DNA of 64,000 bases from a virus. Both the position numbers and the translations under genes were made by a program. The stretch lies in the IMG/VR virus record IMGVR_UViG_3300030339_000006; one strand, written 5' to 3'. A model generated the notes under the pieces. It was given only the letters and a program-made list of their open reading frames with translations, was not told the origin of the DNA and made no database searches. This document shows, piece after piece, positions 16,097 through 57,893 of this stretch (position 1 is its first letter; each line of letters starts with the position of its first letter).

Positions 16097-16927
16097 ATGA
16101 AAAATTACAGCCCTGATGATATAAAGATGGTCGAGTTCTATGGCCGTTTGATACCGACCGTGAAGTACCCTGATTCCAACGACCTGGCCGTCGTGATCGA
16201 TGACATCATCGTTCAGCTCGGTCTGCAGGATTGGAAGGACGAGTTGATGCAACGTGCTCTGTATGACACGAAGTTTCTGGCTCAGTTAATCAACATCGAA
16301 GACGGTCCTGGCCAGCAGTTGGTGGTCATTCCGTTGCACAAACTGAACGCGTACCTGTACTCTATCCGTATTCGCAAAGATGATGACCTGTGGTTCAAAC
16401 AGGAAGTGATCGACGCGATGACCGGTGAAGTGAAAGAAGAGACCGTCAACCTGCGTGAAAACCTGATTCGCTATCAGGACGAATGCTCGATGGCATTGCA
16501 CTCTTACTGGACCAACGGTATTGCGATTAACCCTAATGCCAACTCCCCCTTCGCGGCGCTCGGCTCGCTCTGGCGTACTGCCCGAATGAACCTGACCACT
16601 GTGATTGCTCGCTTCTCGGAGTTCGCAGAAACGACCGGTGAGGACTTCCCCGAAAAGACTGTTCAGCGTGGCATCAACATCCTGCTGAAGGAATTTCTGC
16701 CGGCCCAGCTGGTGGATGAACCGGAACTGTCAAACAACGGGTATGACCTGTACCGTCTGGCTCTGGCTGAAGACTACATCGCCCGCTACCTGAATAACTG
16801 TATCGTAACCAAAGATTCACCGACGCATTGCTTCACCCAGTTGGATGCCGACATGGTCGTCGCGTTCCACTCGATTGCCTCGGGCTTGCTCGAAGCGGTA
16901 AACAACTGGAACATCCCCACTCGATAA
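16097..16927 (+). CDS. P22 antirepressor N-terminal-domain protein
   Basis: VEFYG...IPLHKLNAYLYSI...LIRYQDEC...YWTNGIAINP. Confidence 0.85.
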   Translation: MKNYSPDDIKMVEFYGRLIPTVKYPDSNDLAVVIDDIIVQLGLQDWKDELMQRALYDTKFLAQLINIEDGPGQQLVVIPLHKLNAYLYSIRIRKDDDLWFKQEVIDAMTGEVKEETVNLRENLIRYQDECSMALHSYWTNGIAINPNANSPFAALGSLWRTARMNLTTVIARFSEFAETTGEDFPEKTVQRGINILLKEFLPAQLVDEPELSNNGYDLYRLALAEDYIARYLNNCIVTKDSPTHCFTQLDADMVVAFHSIASGLLEAVNNWNIPTR

Positions 16928-16992
16928 TCTGCGGATTACCGGTATAAGAGACCTGAGGGACAGTTCCGTCCCTCTTATTCTTAGGAGTTATT

Positions 16993-17766
16993 ATGTCTAC
17001 CCATTTCCTGTTAAAAGAGATCCACCGTGTAACCGTCCTCGGCACCGTAATTGAAATCCTCGGTGATGATAAAGGTCAACCAATGGTGCCGATTCGTTCA
17101 CTCTGTGACGCGATCGGTACGGTATACGGTGATGAATTCGCTCGTCTGCGTAGCGACCGCCGCCTGGGCGCCTATAGCATTCGTCTGCGTGCTGAAACGG
17201 ATCCAGTGGACATCGTCTGCGTGCCGTTAACCAAACTGCATGCGTTCCTGTACACCATGAATCCGGACGCTCTGGACAGCGTGGCCCGTGCCAAACTGGA
17301 AATGTTCCAGGACGAGTGCGTTGACGTTCTGAACGATTACTGGAACAAAGGCATTGCGATTAACGATCGTGAAGAACGTGGTAGCACTGAAGGCAGCAAA
17401 TTCCGTGATGCTCGTAAGCTGTCCCGCCCAGCGTTGGTCGAAGCGGTTAAGCGTCTGACGGCGTACGCAGCGACTACCGGTGTCGAACTGGATCCGGACG
17501 ACGTGTATCACCACTTGATCACTTTCTGCTGGGATCGTCTGGGCCGCAACCCGATGAAGTCCGAGTATGAAGAGATCGACACCAATACTCACGGTGCAGA
17601 CTCCTACTTCCTGGCTCTGATGGAACGTACGGCCGTCAAGTTGATCGATGTGGTTATCCAGGAAGGTTACCAGGTCAGTGATGTCATCAACTACCTCGGT
17701 GAAAACATCGACGTGGAACTGGCCAAACTGACTGAACGTGGATTCGAGCTGCTGGAAGCGAAGTAA
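16993..17766 (+). CDS. P22 antirepressor N-terminal-domain protein
   Basis: VPIRSLCDAIG...VPLTKLHAFL...FQDECVDVLNDYWNKGIAIN. Confidence 0.85.
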   Translation: MSTHFLLKEIHRVTVLGTVIEILGDDKGQPMVPIRSLCDAIGTVYGDEFARLRSDRRLGAYSIRLRAETDPVDIVCVPLTKLHAFLYTMNPDALDSVARAKLEMFQDECVDVLNDYWNKGIAINDREERGSTEGSKFRDARKLSRPALVEAVKRLTAYAATTGVELDPDDVYHHLITFCWDRLGRNPMKSEYEEIDTNTHGADSYFLALMERTAVKLIDVVIQEGYQVSDVINYLGENIDVELAKLTERGFELLEAK

Positions 17767-17772
17767 CAAAAC

Positions 17773-17790
17773 GGGACCCTTCGGGGTCCC
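17773..17790 (+). terminator. UUCG hairpin terminator
   Basis: gggaccc-ttcg-gggtccc. Confidence 0.65.
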
Positions 17791-17822
17791 TATCCTAACT
17801 GAATTTCTCTATTTGAGGTTGT

Positions 17823-18611
17823 ATGAAACTGATTGATTTTTATGGCGATACTCTTGAAGTCGTCGAAATGGAAGGTGGTCCCGGTGTTACTGCTCGTCGT
17901 CTGGTCGAGAACCTGGGGTTAGAATGGTCTGGTCAGTTAAAGAAACTGGAAGATCCTATCTACGCTTGTGTACATATGTACACAACTGGATCTGACGACA
18001 AGAAGTATGAAATGATGGTCATGCCTGTGAAGTCTCTGCCGGCTTTCCTCTTCTCGATTAACCCGAAGAAAGTCCGTGAAGACCTGCGTGAGAAACTGGC
18101 CCACTATCGTCTGGAGTGTGTGGACGTGCTATACCAGTACTGGGCAAAAGGCTACGCGATTAACCCTCGGCCGACGGTAGAATCCTCCCTGGAAGACTAT
18201 CTGAGCGGTACCGGTAAGGCCCACTACGCGTTCCTGGACAGCATGCTGGAGTCCGAGTGCAACGGTCCAGAGCATCGTTCCGCGATGGCGAAGGTCATTG
18301 AGCGTATTCTGAGTGAAGCACTCGAAGTTGAAGAAGTTGATATCGAGCGTAACTTCGTGCACCGCAAGCAGGGTTGGGTCTGCATGAGTCCTGTGGAAAT
18401 CACTGTGGTTCAAGCAGTCGAATCAGAGATTGGCCTGTACTTCGCCAAGAACGGCGTGCCGGCTAATGCAGAAGGTGTCATGGAAATGGGTCAGCAGGTT
18501 GGCCGTAAAGTGACAAGCCGTCTGCGTAAAGCGATGTTCATCTCTGAGACATTCTCTGAGAAGTTTGAGACGTCTTTGTTCGAGTTGCTGGGCATGAAAG
18601 AAACGGCTTGA
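17823..18611 (+). CDS. P22 antirepressor N-terminal-domain protein
   Basis: IDFYGD...LVENLGLEWSGQLKKL...FLFSINPKKVR...YRLEC...YWAKGYAINPR. Confidence 0.9.
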   Translation: MKLIDFYGDTLEVVEMEGGPGVTARRLVENLGLEWSGQLKKLEDPIYACVHMYTTGSDDKKYEMMVMPVKSLPAFLFSINPKKVREDLREKLAHYRLECVDVLYQYWAKGYAINPRPTVESSLEDYLSGTGKAHYAFLDSMLESECNGPEHRSAMAKVIERILSEALEVEEVDIERNFVHRKQGWVCMSPVEITVVQAVESEIGLYFAKNGVPANAEGVMEMGQQVGRKVTSRLRKAMFISETFSEKFETSLFELLGMKETA

Positions 18612-22430: not shown

Positions 22431-22809
22431 GGATCTGCATCAGTACGAAAGCCCAGAGGCCTTCTTGGTGGAGTTCATTCCATACTTGGAGGCAACGCGG
22501 GAAGAAGACTGGGTGCAGGATGTCGTGCGGCGAGGTGGGCAGAACTGTTTGATGGGGCATTTCATCAACTTCTGTGAACACGACCTGGATGATAACGTTG
22601 CACCCTCTTGGGATTGGTTCGAGCAGATGGTCGCTACACCCTACATGGTGTACCCGGTCAATGACGGTACTGACCCCGATTATCCTCAGGGCTCCGCCCG
22701 TGAACGTTGTATTGCGTTCATGAAGGATATCCTCTCTGGTACCAAACCAAATACCCTCCGGGCAATGCAAGAAGATTACGAGGAGTGGAAATGCAGAAAT
22801 CACATGTAG
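22420..22809 (+). CDS. Hypothetical protein
   Basis: CLMGH...VNDG...YPQ motifs typical of phage hypotheticals. Confidence 0.7.
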   Translation: MMHKDLHQYESPEAFLVEFIPYLEATREEDWVQDVVRRGGQNCLMGHFINFCEHDLDDNVAPSWDWFEQMVATPYMVYPVNDGTDPDYPQGSARERCIAFMKDILSGTKPNTLRAMQEDYEEWKCRNHM

Positions 22810-24932: not shown

Positions 24933-25199
24933 ATGAAACTCACTCTGAAACAAAAAGGCCTTCGCCAATTCACCGTCCTGTTCCACCGTAAGAACGTCCA
25001 CTCTTTCTATCTGCCGGAAGACGAATCGCTGGCCTACGACCGTATCTACCAGATTCTCGATGAGACCGCCCCAACGCAGGACCCGGTAGACTTCTTCGAT
25101 GGCATGCATGACGCCGGCAACTCCCTGTTCCGGGCCTTCCGGGATAGACATCCGACGTCGTTCTACTGCGGGGCGGTGTGTCTCACTCTGGAGAAGTAG
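24933..25199 (+). CDS. Hypothetical protein
   Basis: GGTATAAG motif plus AGGAG RBS. Confidence 0.7.
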   Translation: MKLTLKQKGLRQFTVLFHRKNVHSFYLPEDESLAYDRIYQILDETAPTQDPVDFFDGMHDAGNSLFRAFRDRHPTSFYCGAVCLTLEK

Positions 25200-25811: not shown

Positions 25812-25886
25812 TGGAGTGTAGCCAAGCGGAAAGGCACTGGTCTCTGAAGCCGGTATGCGGTGGTTCGATCCCACCCACTCCAGCCA
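25812..25886 (+). tRNA. tRNA-Gln(CTG)
   Basis: tggagtg/cactcca acceptor, G73, CCA. Confidence 0.9.
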
Positions 25887-26571: not shown

Positions 26572-26647
26572 AAGACAAGTAGCTCAACTGGTTAGAGCAT
26601 AATCATACCCGATTAGTGTTGGGGGTTCGAGTCCCCCCTGTCTTAGC
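26572..26647 (+). pseudogene. Degenerate tRNA (6-nt anticodon loop, no CCA)
   Basis: Intact D arm (tagctcaactggttagagc) and T arm; taatc-ataccc-gatta. Confidence 0.55.
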
Positions 26648-33361: not shown

Positions 33362-33437
33362 GGGGGCTTGTTCTAGCGGCTACGATGCTGGCCTCCAAAA
33401 CCATGCGACGAAGGTTCGAGTCCTTCAGCCCCTGCCA
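33362..33437 (+). tRNA. tRNA-Trp(CCA)
   Basis: ct-CCA-aa loop, G73, CCA. Confidence 0.85.
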
Positions 33438-34124: not shown

Positions 34125-34414
34125 AGTATACCCGTAAGCCGTACGCAGTGGATGCTGTCCAGTTCAACGGACAGAATCACCTGAATATCTTCGAAGACTA
34201 CTGGCCGGACTGGATCCACCATGCCATAGCCTGCGGTGATGTACAGCTCTGCGGGGATTACTTTGAACTCTGGCGACCGGACCACACTTCCTGGGATCGC
34301 TTCGGGTTGGGCTGCTGGATCGTTCTGGACGACGGCGCCATTATTGGCGTCACCGCCGAAGAATTCTACCGGAGATACGATCGTGTCTACAATCGAAACG
34401 CCGATAATCGATAG
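34121..34414 (+). CDS. Conserved phage protein (RKP..V.AVQF family)
   Basis: MKYTRKPYAVDAVQFNG...F...Y. Confidence 0.7.
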   Translation: MKYTRKPYAVDAVQFNGQNHLNIFEDYWPDWIHHAIACGDVQLCGDYFELWRPDHTSWDRFGLGCWIVLDDGAIIGVTAEEFYRRYDRVYNRNADNR

Positions 34415-34637
34415 CGTATATACAATCAAAGTGACCCGAATCAAGGACTGGCATGCCCGTCTGTTCTTAAACGGGTTGCTGGTCGATGAAATGTCGTGTA
34501 AACTCCGTAGTGATATCGGATGGATCTGCCGTGAGATGATGCGGTGGGCCGATAAAATGGGAGGTGATAGTCATACCTCCAGTGCTCGCAGACGCCAAGG
34601 CCAAGCTGTGGGTAAAGTGAAATACCTGAGGAAATAA
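34383..34637 (+). CDS. Hypothetical protein
   Basis: GTG start after GGAG; IGWICREMMRW. Confidence 0.6.
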   Translation: MSTIETPIIDSVYTIKVTRIKDWHARLFLNGLLVDEMSCKLRSDIGWICREMMRWADKMGGDSHTSSARRRQGQAVGKVKYLRK

Positions 34638-34639
34638 CC

Positions 34640-34978
34640 ATGTTATAGACCAAACACTGGACCTACACGTTCGTTCGTACTGATCTGCCGCTCGAGCAGA
34701 TTCTCGTTCAATCCAACCACGCTTCCCACGAAGCCGCCCTGAAGTACCCCTACACCTCTGCTGAACCTAACTCGCTGATCGTCATTGGCGTGAAGAACCG
34801 TGCTGCCCTCGAAAAGGCCATGGCCCGCTTCGCTGCGTTCGACCCAACCCCTTTCTACGAGCCCGACTGGGAGTACGGCCTGACCGCCTTCACCACCCGT
34901 CCAGTGACCGAAGAAGAGCGTGCTGAATTCCGTAAGTATCAACTCTTCCGGAGGTCACATGTACGCAACCAATTTTGA
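34640..34978 (+). CDS. Pth2-like peptidyl-tRNA hydrolase with in-frame amber codon at position 3
   Basis: GAGG RBS, ATG TTA TAG then in-frame YTFVRTDL...VQSNHA...LIVIGV...FYEPD...LTAF. Confidence 0.8.
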
Positions 34979-35492
34979 TGACCTTCAGACCCGGATGGCC
35001 GCCACTGAGCAGACCGCCGGCGTCTCCGTTCTGGAACACGGCCACAGCGTCCACCAGCGGTACCAGGAGCTCCTTCGGGAGCTCAACCAAGGCAAGGGCA
35101 ACCCGACACTCCAGAAGGTCTGGGAGAGCGTTAGAGAGCGTCTGATGGACCCCGATCTGATCTGGCGGTATCAGGTGTATCACGACTGTGGCAAACCGGC
35201 CTGTGCCCAGGACGGACACTTCCCAGATCACGCAGAGCACTCAGCGAATCAGTGGGCCCTACTCTTCCCGGAAGACCCGGTCGTCGCTGACTTGATGCGG
35301 ATGGACATGCAGTTCCACTTGACGAACGCCGAGGACGCCCGGTCCTTCTGGGCACACCCGCTGGCCCCGACCCTCTACGTCACAGCCTGGGCGGAGATTC
35401 TGTCAAATGCCAGCATGTTCGGCGGAGAAGACTCCACGTCCTTCAAGATTAAGCGTAAGAAGTTAGAGCGTGCCGGGCGGGCGCTGTGGTAA
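34959..35492 (+). CDS. HD-domain protein
   Basis: EHG...YHDCGKP...HFPDHA; GGAGG RBS; overlaps pth gene end. Confidence 0.8.
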   Translation: MYATNFDDLQTRMAATEQTAGVSVLEHGHSVHQRYQELLRELNQGKGNPTLQKVWESVRERLMDPDLIWRYQVYHDCGKPACAQDGHFPDHAEHSANQWALLFPEDPVVADLMRMDMQFHLTNAEDARSFWAHPLAPTLYVTAWAEILSNASMFGGEDSTSFKIKRKKLERAGRALW

Positions 35493-35519: not shown

Positions 35520-36200
35520 ATGGTCGAAAAGAGAGACAATTTTGAAAAAGGCGTAATTGGAGCCGTCGGGGGCACTGCTGCAGCCTCCGGAGTGGCACCT
35601 CGCTTGCTGGGGTATCACGTGGTCCGCCACGGCACGAGCAACGAGAACGCCGCAAAGATCAAGAAGGAAGGGTTTAACCCTAAGATGGGTGGCAAGGGTG
35701 GGGCGGGACAGCACGCGGCGACAGGTGACCGAGCGAAGAGGTTTAAGGAACAATCCCGAGGGAAGATTCACGTAACGAAAAACCCTTTGATCTCCCGTAT
35801 GTTCGCCGGGATAACGGAGAAGCGTAATCCTAATCCCGAATCTCTCGGTGACTTGGCCGGTGGTAAGGTTCTGAAAGCCCGCGTTACTGATCAACATTAC
35901 CGAACCATGCAGAAAGACCCTCACATGGGTGGCGGCAAGGCCACTGCAGCGACGACTCACCACAAGATTCCCTCACATCAGATTATCGGTGGGGCGGGGG
36001 ATAAGGGGGTCAAAGGTGTAGTTAATAAGAAGACGTTGGCGAAATACTACCGCAATAAGACGAATCACGGTCGTATCGGCAGAGGTATAGCTCTCGCGGG
36101 AGTCGCTGCCACCGGTGCTCACCAGGTCTATCAGTCCGTGAAGGAAGGATTGACCAAGAAGTCAGGATTGCAGATCCGGGCAGAAAGTTTGCTCCGGTAA
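35520..36200 (+). CDS. ADP-ribosyltransferase-fold protein, paralogue of 30032..30670
   Basis: RHGTSNENAAKIKKEGF...GKIHVT; colinear motifs with 30032 protein. Confidence 0.7.
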   Translation: MVEKRDNFEKGVIGAVGGTAAASGVAPRLLGYHVVRHGTSNENAAKIKKEGFNPKMGGKGGAGQHAATGDRAKRFKEQSRGKIHVTKNPLISRMFAGITEKRNPNPESLGDLAGGKVLKARVTDQHYRTMQKDPHMGGGKATAATTHHKIPSHQIIGGAGDKGVKGVVNKKTLAKYYRNKTNHGRIGRGIALAGVAATGAHQVYQSVKEGLTKKSGLQIRAESLLR

Positions 36201-36229
36201 TTGACAGGTCAAGGACGACCTGATATCTT
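36201..36229 (+). promoter_or_regulatory. Sigma70-like promoter directly upstream of suppressor tRNA
   Basis: TTGACA-17-TATCTT with TG extension. Confidence 0.65.
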
Positions 36230-36237
36230 ACAGACAT

Positions 36238-36313
36238 GCCTGAGTAGCTGAGCGGTTGTAGCGGGAGCCTCTAAAACTCTGATACGTCGGTTCGAATCCG
36301 ACCTCGGGCACCA
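36238..36313 (+). tRNA. Amber suppressor tRNA (CTA anticodon)
   Basis: gcctgag/ctcgggc acceptor, ct-CTA-aa loop (CTA at 36271-36273), canonical T-arm, A73-CCA. Confidence 0.85.
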
Positions 36314-36928: not shown

Positions 36929-37122
36929 AAGATCAATTCGGTCGTGAGCTCAAACTCGGCGACATGGTCGTCTTCTGCGGGATTCGTCACCGCTCGGCGT
37001 ACCTCTACCGCGGCATCATTGAGAAAGTCGAAGGCAAGTCCCTGACGATCTTCTGTGGTGACCGCGAGTCTTCCCGTAAACGCTTCAACCGCCACTGTGA
37101 GGACGTTTCCCTTGATCGATAG
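36925..37122 (+). CDS. Paralogue family 5
   Basis: MKDQFGRELKLGDMVV. Confidence 0.75.
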   Translation: MKDQFGRELKLGDMVVFCGIRHRSAYLYRGIIEKVEGKSLTIFCGDRESSRKRFNRHCEDVSLDR

Positions 37123-51226: not shown

Positions 51227-52150
51227 ATGAACAAAGTCAGTAAAGTGAATTTCTTCGGTGAAGACATTATCGTAATCGATTGTGAAGTAAAAGTTGCGGG
51301 TAAGACTGAGCACGTGCTAGGTGTTCCTGCAAAGCGTTTAGTTGAACAGTTGGGATTGGCGTGGCCGTCACAGCATGCAAAATTGATGGATGACGAAGAT
51401 AACCGTTATGGCGTATTTGAAGCTCCACTGATCTCTCCAAATGGCAAGACTTACGATTCCCTGGTGATTCCTTACACGGCACTGAATGCATTCCTGTTCA
51501 GTATCAACCGTAAGAACCTGCCGGAGAAGATGATTCAGACAGAACTGTCCGGCGGCGGGATCCGTGAGGAAACCATCAAGCAGAAAATCATCCGTTATCA
51601 GGATGAATGTCAGTTAGTGCTGCATGATTATTGGACCCACGGTGCTGCGATCAATCTGCGTTCTAACTTCGCTGACGCGGAAGCCCAGAAGAACTATGAC
51701 ATCCTCGAAACGTCTCGTAAGCGTTATGAGAACATGTTCAATGGCCTGGTGCAGAACATCGTTGACTCTCAGGGTAAACGTGGTGAAGACTTCGAGCGTG
51801 GCGTGATTGAGTTTGCGGGCGTACTGGAAGAGCAGGTTCTGGAAGTCATCATGACCTGTATGGGTGCGGCTGAACTGGATACTCAGGCGATGACCATCCG
51901 TAAGCCAGGGGAAGCCGGTAAGCGTTATCTGACCGGTATGGAAGCGATCTATATCAGCATTCTGCAGAACTGTTTCTGTGACTTGATCGGTCTGTTCCGT
52001 CGTAAAGAGATCGGCGACGGTCGTAACTACGAAGCCATCCTCGATGAACTGCCGAAATACTTCGACGACTATCTGAGCAACGTCAATCGAGACGTCCTGA
52101 TGATGCGTAACACGTTCAACCGTGGTCGTGGTCTGTTCGCTCCAAACTAA
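51227..52150 (+). CDS. P22 antirepressor N-terminal-domain protein
   Basis: VNFFGE...LVEQLGLAWPSQ..KL...LNAFLFSIN...YQDEC..VLHDYWTHG. Confidence 0.85.
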   Translation: MNKVSKVNFFGEDIIVIDCEVKVAGKTEHVLGVPAKRLVEQLGLAWPSQHAKLMDDEDNRYGVFEAPLISPNGKTYDSLVIPYTALNAFLFSINRKNLPEKMIQTELSGGGIREETIKQKIIRYQDECQLVLHDYWTHGAAINLRSNFADAEAQKNYDILETSRKRYENMFNGLVQNIVDSQGKRGEDFERGVIEFAGVLEEQVLEVIMTCMGAAELDTQAMTIRKPGEAGKRYLTGMEAIYISILQNCFCDLIGLFRRKEIGDGRNYEAILDELPKYFDDYLSNVNRDVLMMRNTFNRGRGLFAPN

Positions 52151-54169: not shown

Positions 54170-54970
54170 ATGAACTATCATCAGGGTCAAATTGACGCAC
54201 GCGTTGCTCTGCTGGATGTTATCTATAAGGTGGATCCCCTGATCGCTGGGGATATCATCAATAAAGCCGAAATGGCCGTCACCGGGACGCCGGAGTATCT
54301 GCAGGGTTTCAGTGAGTACTGTGACAGCAAGTGGCGTGAACTCAAACTGGATGGGCCGCGGGTAACCCACGACGAACTGGTGAAGGACTTCGGTATCGCC
54401 GGTACGCACCGCCGTCTGTTCAATGCTCGCCGCCTGGCTCAGGATTCCCATGAAGGGCAGTGGCGTAAAGGAGCGGAAGAGCCGTACTTCAATCACGTCT
54501 ATCGCGTGTCCCAGTCGGTGGCAAACTACCTGGCCTTGAAGGGAATGACCTTCGCCTTCGAGCGGCACTCCGTGGACATGATGATTGCGGCGTTGTTGCA
54601 TGACGTGGTCGAGGACTGCGACGTTACGCTGGATGAAGTCCAGAGCCTGTTCGGCCTGCGGGTTCGTACCTGGGTAGATGGCTTGACGCACATCATGGTT
54701 GGTGTCAACCGGGCGGACCGGGAGTATAAGACGCGTCAGAAACTGATGGCGGCGCCGTGGGAGGTGAAGTTGATCAAGTGCTTTGACATCTATGATAACG
54801 CGAAGAGCATGGCGATCGATGATCCCGGCTTCGGCGTTCTGTGGTATCAGGAGAAGTTGGAACTGGTGAGAGAAGGGTTCCTGGCAGAAATGCCCGCGTT
54901 AGTGCGAGATCTCGTCCAGGGAACCCTGACTATGGGTCACGCTCTTAGCTTAGCACTAACTAAGAAATAG
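54170..54970 (+). CDS. SpoT/Mesh1-like HD hydrolase (small alarmone hydrolase-like)
   Basis: HEGQWRK...PY.NH...AALLHDVVED...FG..V...V.GLT...KLIK..D..DN. Confidence 0.85.
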   Translation: MNYHQGQIDARVALLDVIYKVDPLIAGDIINKAEMAVTGTPEYLQGFSEYCDSKWRELKLDGPRVTHDELVKDFGIAGTHRRLFNARRLAQDSHEGQWRKGAEEPYFNHVYRVSQSVANYLALKGMTFAFERHSVDMMIAALLHDVVEDCDVTLDEVQSLFGLRVRTWVDGLTHIMVGVNRADREYKTRQKLMAAPWEVKLIKCFDIYDNAKSMAIDDPGFGVLWYQEKLELVREGFLAEMPALVRDLVQGTLTMGHALSLALTKK

Positions 54971-55480
54971 TGACCGTTCGGCTTGGCGTCTTTTAACCAA
55001 ACCCCCCATGACGACGCCACCGGATTTGGTCCACTGGAGCAAGCCATTAGCAGCTGCCGTAAAGGCACCCGCCCGTAGGTTTCGAAGAATACTTGAAGTA
55101 GCACCACTGCGTAAGGTAATAAGTCCATCTTTAACTCCTTTTGAGCCTGGACCTACATTGTACACAAAGGACACTAACGCATCAAACTGATTCTGATTTA
55201 GTTTGACTGGCGGCGTTCCGGCGATGACCTGTTTGTTAATCACGTCCTCCGCCCACTTCACGTCAGCGGCAAAGAGTGCATCAATCTGAGCCTGCGTCAG
55301 TGTCACGCGATCGTACTGCGTGTCTGTTTTCTTCACCAAGTGACCGATCCCGATCGTTGGGAAACCTACTGCGTCGGCTGCACGAGCAATCGTCTTGCCG
55401 GTTTTGTCATCATAAAGCTGTGCTCGAGACCCTTCGAAGAGGGCCATCTCGGCACGCCCCTTACTACTTAATGTCATCAT
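54956..55480 (-). CDS. Endolysin (GH24 lysozyme)
   Basis: FEG...Y.D...TIGIGH...LNQNQFDALVSFVYNVG...GLVKRRQAE. Confidence 0.92.
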   Translation of the reverse strand: MMTLSSKGRAEMALFEGSRAQLYDDKTGKTIARAADAVGFPTIGIGHLVKKTDTQYDRVTLTQAQIDALFAADVKWAEDVINKQVIAGTPPVKLNQNQFDALVSFVYNVGPGSKGVKDGLITLRSGATSSILRNLRAGAFTAAANGLLQWTKSGGVVMGGLVKRRQAERSLFLS

Positions 55481-57389: not shown

Positions 57390-57893
57390 ATGACAAAGCT
57401 ATTTCTGGGCGTTGACCCCGGTTGGAAGAATCTCGGATGGTCAGTGACCGATGAGAAAGGCCGTTACATCAAGTCAGGATCGGTTGACCCCAGCACGCTC
57501 CCGCTGGGTTCGATCGGTCAGTACCTGCTGTCGCAACTCGAAGAAGAAGCACCGTTTCTCGCCGGCATGGCCATGGAGCGCTACGTGGTCTACAAGGGTA
57601 AGTACAACTCGGACTCCGAGCACATCCTCTTGGTCACCGGGGCCCTCCAAGCGCTAGCATGCCAGCTGGGTATCCCACTGGACATGTACAAAGCGATCGA
57701 CTGGAAAACCCGAGCAGCTAAGTTCATCTACAAGACTACCCGTCAGGAGAATCCGTCCGATCGTCTGGACAAAGTGTTCTCCATGTTCGCCGCCTTGGTT
57801 CTCCTGGAAGTTGAGTTCGAATCGGATCACGAGGCAGACGCATCCTGTCTGTCCTGGTTCGCAGGAATGGCCTGGCGAGCTTCAAACAGGTAG
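57390..57893 (+). CDS. RuvC-like Holliday junction resolvase/nuclease
   Basis: LGVDPG...LGW, AMER, WK, HEADA. Confidence 0.85.
   Translation: MTKLFLGVDPGWKNLGWSVTDEKGRYIKSGSVDPSTLPLGSIGQYLLSQLEEEAPFLAGMAMERYVVYKGKYNSDSEHILLVTGALQALACQLGIPLDMYKAIDWKTRAAKFIYKTTRQENPSDRLDKVFSMFAALVLLEVEFESDHEADASCLSWFAGMAWRASNR

Follow-up and report, generated by a model that had tools for sequence, protein, structure and literature searches.

What does a phage in which TAG still ends ordinary genes do with an intact amber-suppressor tRNA? The question is raised by a 64,000-nucleotide (nt) stretch of the IMG/VR virus record IMGVR_UViG_3300030339_000006 (hereafter the window, always meaning this whole stretch), which encodes at 36238-36313 a tRNA with anticodon CUA, here called tRNA(CUA). 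We propose that this tRNA would be a working phage amber suppressor and that its conserved client is a short gene of predicted Pth2 fold at 34640-34978, whose third codon is an in-frame TAG that we call the gate; from the sequence comparisons given below, we put the probability of this reading at about three in four. Suppressor tRNAs in standard-code phages have been a loose end, and the gated gene provides a concrete and testable target for them.

The comparison relied on a small set of relatives. All called genes of the window are on the + strand (G+C content 52.9%) and its nucleotide matches among 50,697 phage records were tRNAs only. The closest named phage, both by protein search and by a sensitive tRNA search, was Salmonella phage Arash, a 180.8-kb 'orphan' myovirus. 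We compared the window with Arash, with the complete G001, G002, G003 and with the 40-kb fragment G004, the latter four from IMG/VR; each relative aligned with the window over some 20 of the 64 kb, at about 70% nucleotide identity. The features of first concern are the following:

34640..34978, + strand: stop-gated gene of predicted Pth2 fold, with ATG at 34640, TTA, the gate TAG at 34646-34648, 109 further codons and TGA at 34976-34978.
34628..34631, + strand: Shine-Dalgarno (SD)-like GAGG, spaced 8 nt from the start codon of the gated gene, read from the sequence.
34236..34637, + strand: upstream open reading frame (ORF) of 133 amino acids, PHROG 12201, closing with TAA two bases ahead of the gated gene's start codon.
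36201..36229, + strand: sigma-70-like promoter TTGACA-17-TATCTT with a TG extension, ending 8 nt before the tRNA (consensus scan, 10/12 matches).
36238..36313, + strand: tRNA(CUA), amber suppressor with encoded CCA (ARAGORN; Rfam RF00005, 55.3 bits).

The gated gene sits 1.6 kb upstream of tRNA(CUA), and its layout recurred in 6/6 genomes (the window and its five relatives): an SD-like motif, ATG, a leucine codon (CTG in five genomes, the synonymous TTA in the window), TAG, and then AAC or ACC followed by AAA CAC TGG. Past the gate, third-position changes dominated among the six genomes, and no in-frame ATG, GTG or TTG occurred in them for 47-57 codons (47 in the window). Upstream of the gate the genomes differed: G001, G002 and G004 had an in-frame ORF, the window had a TAA, and the sequence of Arash and G003 was unrelated; the ORF in these three relatives is the homologue of the PHROG 12201 ORF and reads in frame into the gate, the resulting order of gene, TAG and open frame recurring in all three while the downstream half was strongly conserved in all six genomes. 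We scanned the six genomes for gates defined as ATG, at most 4 codons, a stop and at least 70 open codons; an SD motif was required, as were a coding score of more than 10 and a run of 15 or more coding-like codons ahead of the next start. The scan returned six TAG gates, the gated gene once per genome, and no TAA or TGA gates. The sequence-only reading had looked to late or lysis genes for further conserved in-frame TAGs; one such TAG was indeed found, in the Pth2-fold gene, which is not a late or lysis gene. The window's phage was present in peat-metagenome DNA runs, and contigs of four other runs were identical over the gate, two of these also showing no differences over the tRNA. No RNA run was listed as containing the stretch, the single RNA-labelled entry matching 0.05 of the words.

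The gate falls in the variable N-terminal tail of the Pth2-like protein, and the residue inserted there would therefore probably be immaterial. Among the metagenome homologues P0005-P0010, several begin with MLQN, MQQN, MNQT or MMQN, with Q exactly at the gate, and others begin from an internal 'VQSNHA'; this looks like the work of gene callers that either read TAG as Gln or cut the gene short.

The tRNA itself is real. At 76 nt it is one of the 24 tRNA genes that ARAGORN found in the window, and its Rfam score compares with a gathering score of 29 (E 9.8e-10), so that the intact CUA tRNA claimed from sequence alone was borne out. The features described at that time also agreed with the sequence: acceptor pairs G1-C72, C2-G71 and C3-G70 with discriminator A73 and encoded CCA, a 7-nt anticodon loop C-U-C-U-A-A-A having the U33 and the purine at 37 of an amber-suppressor anticodon, and a short variable loop (5 nt in ARAGORN, with cloverleaf arms of 7/4/5/5 as is usual for the tRNA family). 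C31 stands opposite A39 without pairing, a kind of mismatch shared with the window's tRNA-Trp(CCA) at 33362-33437. In ARAGORN bracket strings, a 31/39 mismatch appeared in roughly half of the suppressors that accompany gated genes in other phages; L086, an Arash-like relative, has U31-A39 instead. Single-sequence thermodynamic folding of tRNA(CUA) by minimum free energy gave no cloverleaf (z = -0.30), a failure that does not outweigh the covariance-model score because such folds are usual for unmodified tRNA sequences and uninformative for tRNA. ARAGORN labels any tRNA with a CTA anticodon tRNA-Pyl. The shape of pylT comprises a short D loop, a 6-bp anticodon stem and a 3-nt variable loop; tRNA(CUA) has canonical arms and a 5-nt variable loop, and no pylS or pylBCD family appeared among 24 window proteins in a general family scan, which was not a search aimed at them.

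Orthologues of tRNA(CUA) were found at the syntenic site in Arash, G001, G002, G003 and G004, and also in L086; in each of the six Arash-like genomes (the window, Arash and G001-G004) a single CTA tRNA lies between tRNA-Trp and tRNA-Lys. The Arash copy, labelled tRNA-Phe in GenBank, is about 90% identical to that of the window, and changes among the orthologues preserved structure (T stem GTCGG/CCGAC versus GTGGG/CCCAC, pair 4:69 U-G versus U-A). The promoter call is weak on its own, because the consensus scan saw 2 sigma-70-like sites in the tRNA region against 1.3 expected, but the 29-nt block at 36201-36229 was identical in Arash while its flanks diverged. The Leu-like acceptor suggested by the sequence-only reading found no support: in global alignments against the other tRNAs of the window, those of the five relatives and those of G005 (a distant phage in which the gated gene also occurs) identity did not exceed 71%, and the suppressor tRNAs linked to gated genes in other phages had A, G, U or C as discriminator. 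BLAST against Escherichia coli genomes gave no match at E 10, and for this reason no host tRNA could be named as the source.

We examined the co-occurrence of gate and tRNA in IMG/VR contigs. A first, profile-guided scan gave 35 loci with a homologue of the gated gene, 29/35 of them TAG-gated (ATG, 0-3 codons, TAG) with leaders such as MLx, MSHx, MAHx, MTx, MKSx, Mx and MIx, among others; 25/29 had a CTA tRNA within 4 kb, in many cases on the same strand and 130-750 nt upstream. When the scan was repeated with a broader alignment it returned 51 loci, and the counts given here cover the 24 contigs that were new: 12/24 were TAG-gated, 9 of these 12 with a CTA tRNA within 5 kb; 3/24 were TGA-gated, 3/3 with a TCA tRNA and 0 with CTA; 9/24 were ungated, 2 of them with a CTA tRNA. 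Taken together, the 59 loci were distributed as follows:

TAG-gated: 41 loci, with a CTA tRNA within 4-5 kb in 34.
TGA-gated: 3 loci, with a TCA tRNA nearby in 3 (directly upstream in 2) and a CTA tRNA in 0.
Ungated or unclear: 15 loci, with a CTA tRNA in the flank in 4.

The association between TAG gating and the CTA tRNA (34/41 versus 4/15) gave p = 1.5e-4 in a Fisher test that ignores relatedness; after clustering at 60%, a CTA tRNA was in the flank in 11/13 TAG-only clusters versus 1/8 ungated clusters. When 55 distinct proteins were placed on a maximum-likelihood tree, TAG gates fell on both sides of the midpoint root and TGA gates at three separate places. The base following the gate TAG in the IMG/VR loci was always a purine, mostly A, a context that favours amber suppression in E. 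coli, and the codon after the gate was AAC, ACC, AAT, ATT, ATC, ACT, ACA, GAA or GCG, without a shared start. The Pth2-like gene was also found in 28 cultured-phage records, including Eneladusvirus-type jumbo phages, Cronobacter phage GAP32, CBB, Acinetobacter phage ME3 and RsoM2USA, in the last of which an M-L-TAG gate lies in an unannotated gap; Serratia phage BF is likewise a cultured carrier. In 14/28 of these records nothing was annotated under the match and in others the annotation was truncated; in the Yersinia phage fHe-Yen9-04 (L118, record 289133-290016) the Pth2-like gene again falls in an unannotated gap. Since the deposited annotation of most cultured carriers lacks this gene or cuts it short, gene callers need to recognise the gate pattern. 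By these comparisons, the suppressor tRNA and its presumed client appear to form a portable module that recurs in many unrelated large phages, most often with the tRNA immediately beside the gene. Suppressor gating of the Pth2-like gene is well supported by what is seen directly: its anatomy, its conservation, its co-occurrence with the tRNA and the match between codon and anticodon.

TAG nevertheless remains an ordinary stop in these phages. In the calls of a simple, rather crude codon-usage gene caller, TAG ended 8/111 genes in the window, 13/227 in Arash, 14/239 in G001, 11/235 in G002, 12/203 in G003 and 7/75 in G004, that is 65/1090 over the six genomes and 5-9% per genome. The sequence-only reading had listed six TAG stops in the window, and three of them stood up well: orthologues of the gene ending at 25199 terminate at the same place, with TGA in Arash and G003 and with TAG in G004, those of the gene ending at 54970 at the same residue (TAA in 4 relatives, TAG in 1) and those of the gene ending at 57893 at the same position (TAG in 3 relatives, TAA in 2). 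The other three are weaker. The gene ending at 22809 had a single relative match that ends elsewhere, and the one ending at 37122 a single weak match; the ORF ending at 34414 is probably not a gene, because it had no match in the 5 relatives and overlaps the conserved ORF at 34236-34637. The gene ending at 54970 (54170-54970, HD phosphohydrolase-like) has a TGA immediately after its TAG (54968-54973).

Among the called genes of the six genomes, the open frame after TAG had a median of 14 codons and reached at least 30 codons in 20/65 genes, against a median of 13 (164/675) after TAA and 10 (78/350) after TGA, which is no excess after TAG. The long extensions past TAG corresponded to the next gene in frame and were not conserved between relatives. 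Other in-frame gene-TAG-gene pairs seen in Arash, G001 and G003 were dropped as the TAG was not conserved in relatives. The split DNA polymerase of Arash, annotated as three genes (gp154c-TAG-gp153c, and gp152c), was likewise rejected as a readthrough candidate; it carries a group I intron in motif B of the polymerase (RF00028, 58.9 bits, E 2e-14, L036 38256-38527 on the - strand, record 88256-88527), outside the region homologous to the window. These gene-based tests replaced a six-frame tblastn search with TAG read as Gln, most of whose 4344 spanning alignments merely reflected DNA similarity in the wrong frame. Ratios of ORF length, computed with each stop taken as sense, are uninformative, because removing any stop lengthens ORFs, and we did not use them as evidence on the code of metagenomic loci. 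With TAG ending genes, orthologous stops swapping with TAA and TGA and a single gated gene per genome, the window does not look like a code-15 phage, in agreement with the sequence-only reading, and the selective readthrough that it proposed gains support from one conserved in-frame TAG, at codon 3, per genome.

The 109-residue product behind the gate is predicted to have a Pth2 fold. Its AlphaFold2 (AF2) model (predicted local distance difference test, pLDDT, 85.8) was assigned to this fold by Foldseek with probability 1.00 and template-modelling (TM) scores of 0.62-0.67 to the archaeal and human structures 3erj, 2zv3, 1q7s, 1wn2 and 1xty. By sequence it matched only PHROG 34073 and 1866, both of unknown function, and its nearest ESM Atlas clusters were viral, with PF01981 on 21-29% of their members. 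In 19 sequences, 28-55% identical to the window protein, 12 columns were invariant, including D12, Q17, Q21, H24, E28, E71 and R91, and the motif R-x-D-L...VQ-x-x-HA is common to the phage family and Pth2.

A second gene starts within the end of the gated one:

34959..35492, + strand: HD-fold gene of 177 amino acids, PHROG 14850, with its own GGAGG SD motif, its first 20 nt lying within the 3' end of the gated gene.
35520..36200, + strand: ORF of 226 amino acids between this two-gene cassette and the tRNA, without a family match.

In 12 HD-fold sequences H27, H75-D76, H91, D116 and H120 were invariant (an H..HD..H..D motif), and this motif and the modelled fold (AF2 pLDDT 94.3) place the protein in the HD-domain phosphohydrolase superfamily; the Pfam HD profile (PF01966) was reached by 2/12 members, with a best E of 0.015. 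The best structural match of the model was 3wfr residues 250-444 (VIA; Z 14.2, root-mean-square deviation 3.0 over 156 residues), the runner-up entry having Z 11.1 and ordinary HD enzymes Z 8-10. This match is the C-terminal HD domain of PDB entries 3wfo-3wfs (title 'tRNA processing enzyme', molecule 'Poly A polymerase'), and the class-II nucleotidyltransferase family of these entries repairs tRNA CCA ends. A motif HD(I/C)GKP...H is shared with them in a weak sequence match (E 0.16), and, from the model, the closest resemblance of the HD-fold protein appears to be to the HD domain found in enzymes of the tRNA nucleotidyltransferase type. The gene adjoins the Pth2-like gene in 15/43 representative loci, and ORF364 of XacN1 combines both domains in one protein, a hint that the two may act jointly. 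The window copy contains no TAG; 7/16 lineages examined have an in-frame TAG of their own in the HD-fold gene, at codon 3-4 in two, at a variable site in two and, in three, where homologues have a conserved Trp. The annotation of fHe-Yen9-04 splits the gene at its in-frame TAG into two hypothetical proteins, g408 and g409. There seems to exist, in some lineages, a second client of the suppressor in this gene.

The simplest reading is suppressor-dependent translation, because the gate matches the anticodon, no start follows the gate and the HD-fold gene has mid-gene TAGs. We infer expression and charging of the tRNA, readthrough of the gate, enzymatic activity of the product and a reason for gating, and the mechanism would run as follows. 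Ribosomes would start at the ATG behind the SD motif, read Leu and meet UAG at codon 3; where release factor 1 wins, a mere dipeptide would result, and where charged tRNA(CUA) wins, a 112-residue Pth2-fold protein. The overlapping HD-fold gene would probably be translated together with the gated gene, and in lineages where the gate codon is TGA the neighbouring tRNA with anticodon UCA would take the place of tRNA(CUA). From their models, both products probably look like enzymes acting on tRNA 3' ends. We therefore advance tentatively, and at somewhat less than even odds, a widespread cassette in which a private suppressor (CUA, or UCA in some lineages) would serve as the key to translation of two proteins, a Pth2-fold esterase and an HD phosphohydrolase of the CCA-enzyme type. 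Since the key is itself a tRNA, such a cassette could sense the tRNA pool or release-factor competition and limit its own output. As to purpose, it is possible, though less likely than not, that gating by a private, non-essential tRNA keeps a potentially harmful tRNA-deacylating activity low, self-limiting or tied to the balance between charged tRNA and release factor; alternatively, the cassette could serve in the repair of tRNA ends damaged by host defences.

Several observations weigh against this proposal. The loci are related to one another, and the counts thus overstate the number of independent events. G005 (complete, 357,873 bp, 30 tRNAs by ARAGORN) has the TAG gate and no CTA tRNA; it is one of four gated loci of the first scan that lack a CTA tRNA in the flank, two of which have one elsewhere on the contig. 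No CTA tRNA was found in G007, the fourth of them and a 14.6-kb fragment, by a motif pattern that would miss an atypical tRNA, nor within the 5-kb flank of the gated second-scan loci L215, L218 and L220. Conversely, G012, L226/L227 and XacN1 carry a CTA tRNA despite an ungated or fused copy of the gene, and because of such phages tRNA(CUA) may have other uses. In L204 and L231 an ordinary start is possible, because a GTG lies between the TGA gate and the conserved domain. The gated product reached no Pfam or NCBIfam family at E 0.1, the PF01981 profile included. The catalytic residues of Pth2 are the Lys of a GK motif and an Asp, and in the only sequence alignment to a solved Pth2 (24bt_A, a weak E of 0.068) the 'tgKK' segment falls in an insertion that the phage family lacks; on account of the missed profile and the missing 'GK' insertion in this weak alignment, hydrolase activity is not assured.

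We also weighed other explanations. The tRNA could be a general leaky suppressor that extends ordinary TAG-ended phage or host proteins, the gated gene being incidental. With 5-9% of called genes ending in TAG the potential targets would be many, as the authors of the RsoM2USA paper assume in the passages searched (PMC8504454); the tandem TAG-TGA at 54968-54973 could be a backstop in one window gene, and the CTA tRNA is kept in some phages with ungated copies. We nevertheless regard it as unlikely, since frames stay open no longer past TAG than past TAA or TGA (median 14 versus 13 and 10 codons), the long extensions are simply the following gene in frame and lack conservation, and TAG is exchanged for TAA or TGA in orthologues. 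The XacN1 authors, in the corresponding part of their paper (PMC5852040), found nothing behind 18 amber stops, and leaky readthrough leaves the codon-anticodon match at the gate unexplained. It is quite improbable, in our view, that ATG-Leu-TAG is instead a two-codon minigene leader regulating the Pth2-like gene through reinitiation or an unusual start, with the tRNA unrelated. The stop does come 1-8 codons after an SD-led ATG, as in known minigenes; ATT or ATC follows TAG in about a dozen loci and GTG follows TGA in L204. Peptidyl-tRNA drop-off is the means by which the bar minigenes of phage lambda act, and this would connect a minigene with a Pth-like product. However, the gate is followed by no shared start codon (none for 47 codons in the window), the sequence directly after TAG is conserved and evolves codon-wise, the type of stop tracks the anticodon of the neighbouring tRNA, and the mid-gene TAGs of the HD-fold gene cannot be leaders.

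Lastly, both elements could be leftovers that no longer work, either a tRNA and a TAG hitch-hiking from an ancestor that read TAG as sense or a gated gene decaying as a pseudogene. The gate kept without a CTA tRNA in G005 and the omission or truncation of the gene in database records would fit such decay, and suppressor tRNAs are best known from recoded phages, in the parts consulted of 10.1101/2021.08.26.457843 and PMC13037316. We consider this very improbable, given that the tRNA, the promoter block and the gated frame have been kept across genomes about 70% identical, with structure- and codon-preserving changes, that 12 columns are invariant in the 19 divergent Pth2-like sequences, and that gated copies occur on either side of the tree's midpoint root.

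Some further observations concern other tRNAs and genes. At 26572-26645 the window has a tRNA-like gene whose anticodon ARAGORN could not read ('ac', 2 nt; Rfam tRNA 38 bits); its counterparts are also odd ('tt' in Arash, 'ac' in G004, 'caaa' in G003, Trp cca at position 36 in G002), that of Arash being named tRNA-Asn in GenBank. Beside tRNA-Tyr, the window has tRNA-Gln(CTG) at 25812-25886 where all five relatives have tRNA-Phe(GAA), and tRNA-Phe is absent from the 64-kb window. A tRNA with the ochre-type anticodon TTA was also seen in two phages, at 75765-75843 (- strand) in G002 and at 4322-4405 in L112, in the latter 17 nt from a CTA tRNA and directly after the Pth2-like gene. The anti-repressor Ant family (PHROG 524) has four paralogous window genes, at 16097-18611 and 51227-52150, three of them in a row.

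If the proposal is true, phages with the standard code would harbour a natural and portable 'amber-gated' genetic switch, compact enough, if the gate works as read, to consist of one tRNA and one codon. The gated target appears general, being found in phages of enterobacteria, Acinetobacter and Ralstonia and in many uncultured lineages. It would also point to phage control or repair of tRNA 3' ends and bear on tRNA-targeting defence systems.

How does this arrangement compare with known systems? With Pth2 (3erj, 2zv3, 1q7s, 1xty) the gated product shares its predicted fold and the R-x-D-L...VQ-x-x-HA motif, and differs in having no Pfam match and, in the weak alignment, no 'GK' insertion. The HD-fold protein resembles the HD domain of the 3wfo-3wfs nucleotidyltransferase, but stands alone as a 177-residue domain without the nucleotidyltransferase head. 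The autoregulation of prfB (release factor 2) passes through an in-frame UGA that is escaped by +1 frameshifting, and senses its own product. As in prfB, an early in-frame stop would tie the yield of a translation-related protein to competition at that stop; unlike in prfB, the escape would be by a dedicated suppressor tRNA, and we regard the likeness as an analogy and not as membership.

In the main-text passages searched, supplements not being covered, we met neither a stop-gated Pth2-like gene nor a target named for such tRNAs. The Arash paper, in these passages, mentions tRNAs once and suppressors never. The XacN1 paper (PMC5852040) describes an orphan suppressor tRNA without a target and the RsoM2USA paper (PMC8504454) a suppressor tRNA with no named target, again in the parts consulted. 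Both phages have the same kind of tRNA(CUA), the standard code and a Pth2-like homologue, and here a target is proposed for them, RsoM2USA being gated and XacN1 carrying an ungated fusion of the two cassette proteins. The closest parallel lies in the phages recoded to code 15 (TAG to Gln) or code 4 (TGA to Trp) with suppressor tRNAs (Borges et al., 10.1101/2021.08.26.457843; PMC13037316), in which, according to the parts consulted, a phage tRNA(CUA) or tRNA(UCA) likewise reads an in-frame stop thought to time translation, recoding extends to many late, structural and lysis genes, and the stop has largely ceased to serve as a terminator. In the Arash-like phages, unlike these, TAG is an ordinary stop, and the candidate client is one gene per genome (two in some other lineages), with the stop within the first codons and close to the tRNA that would read it.
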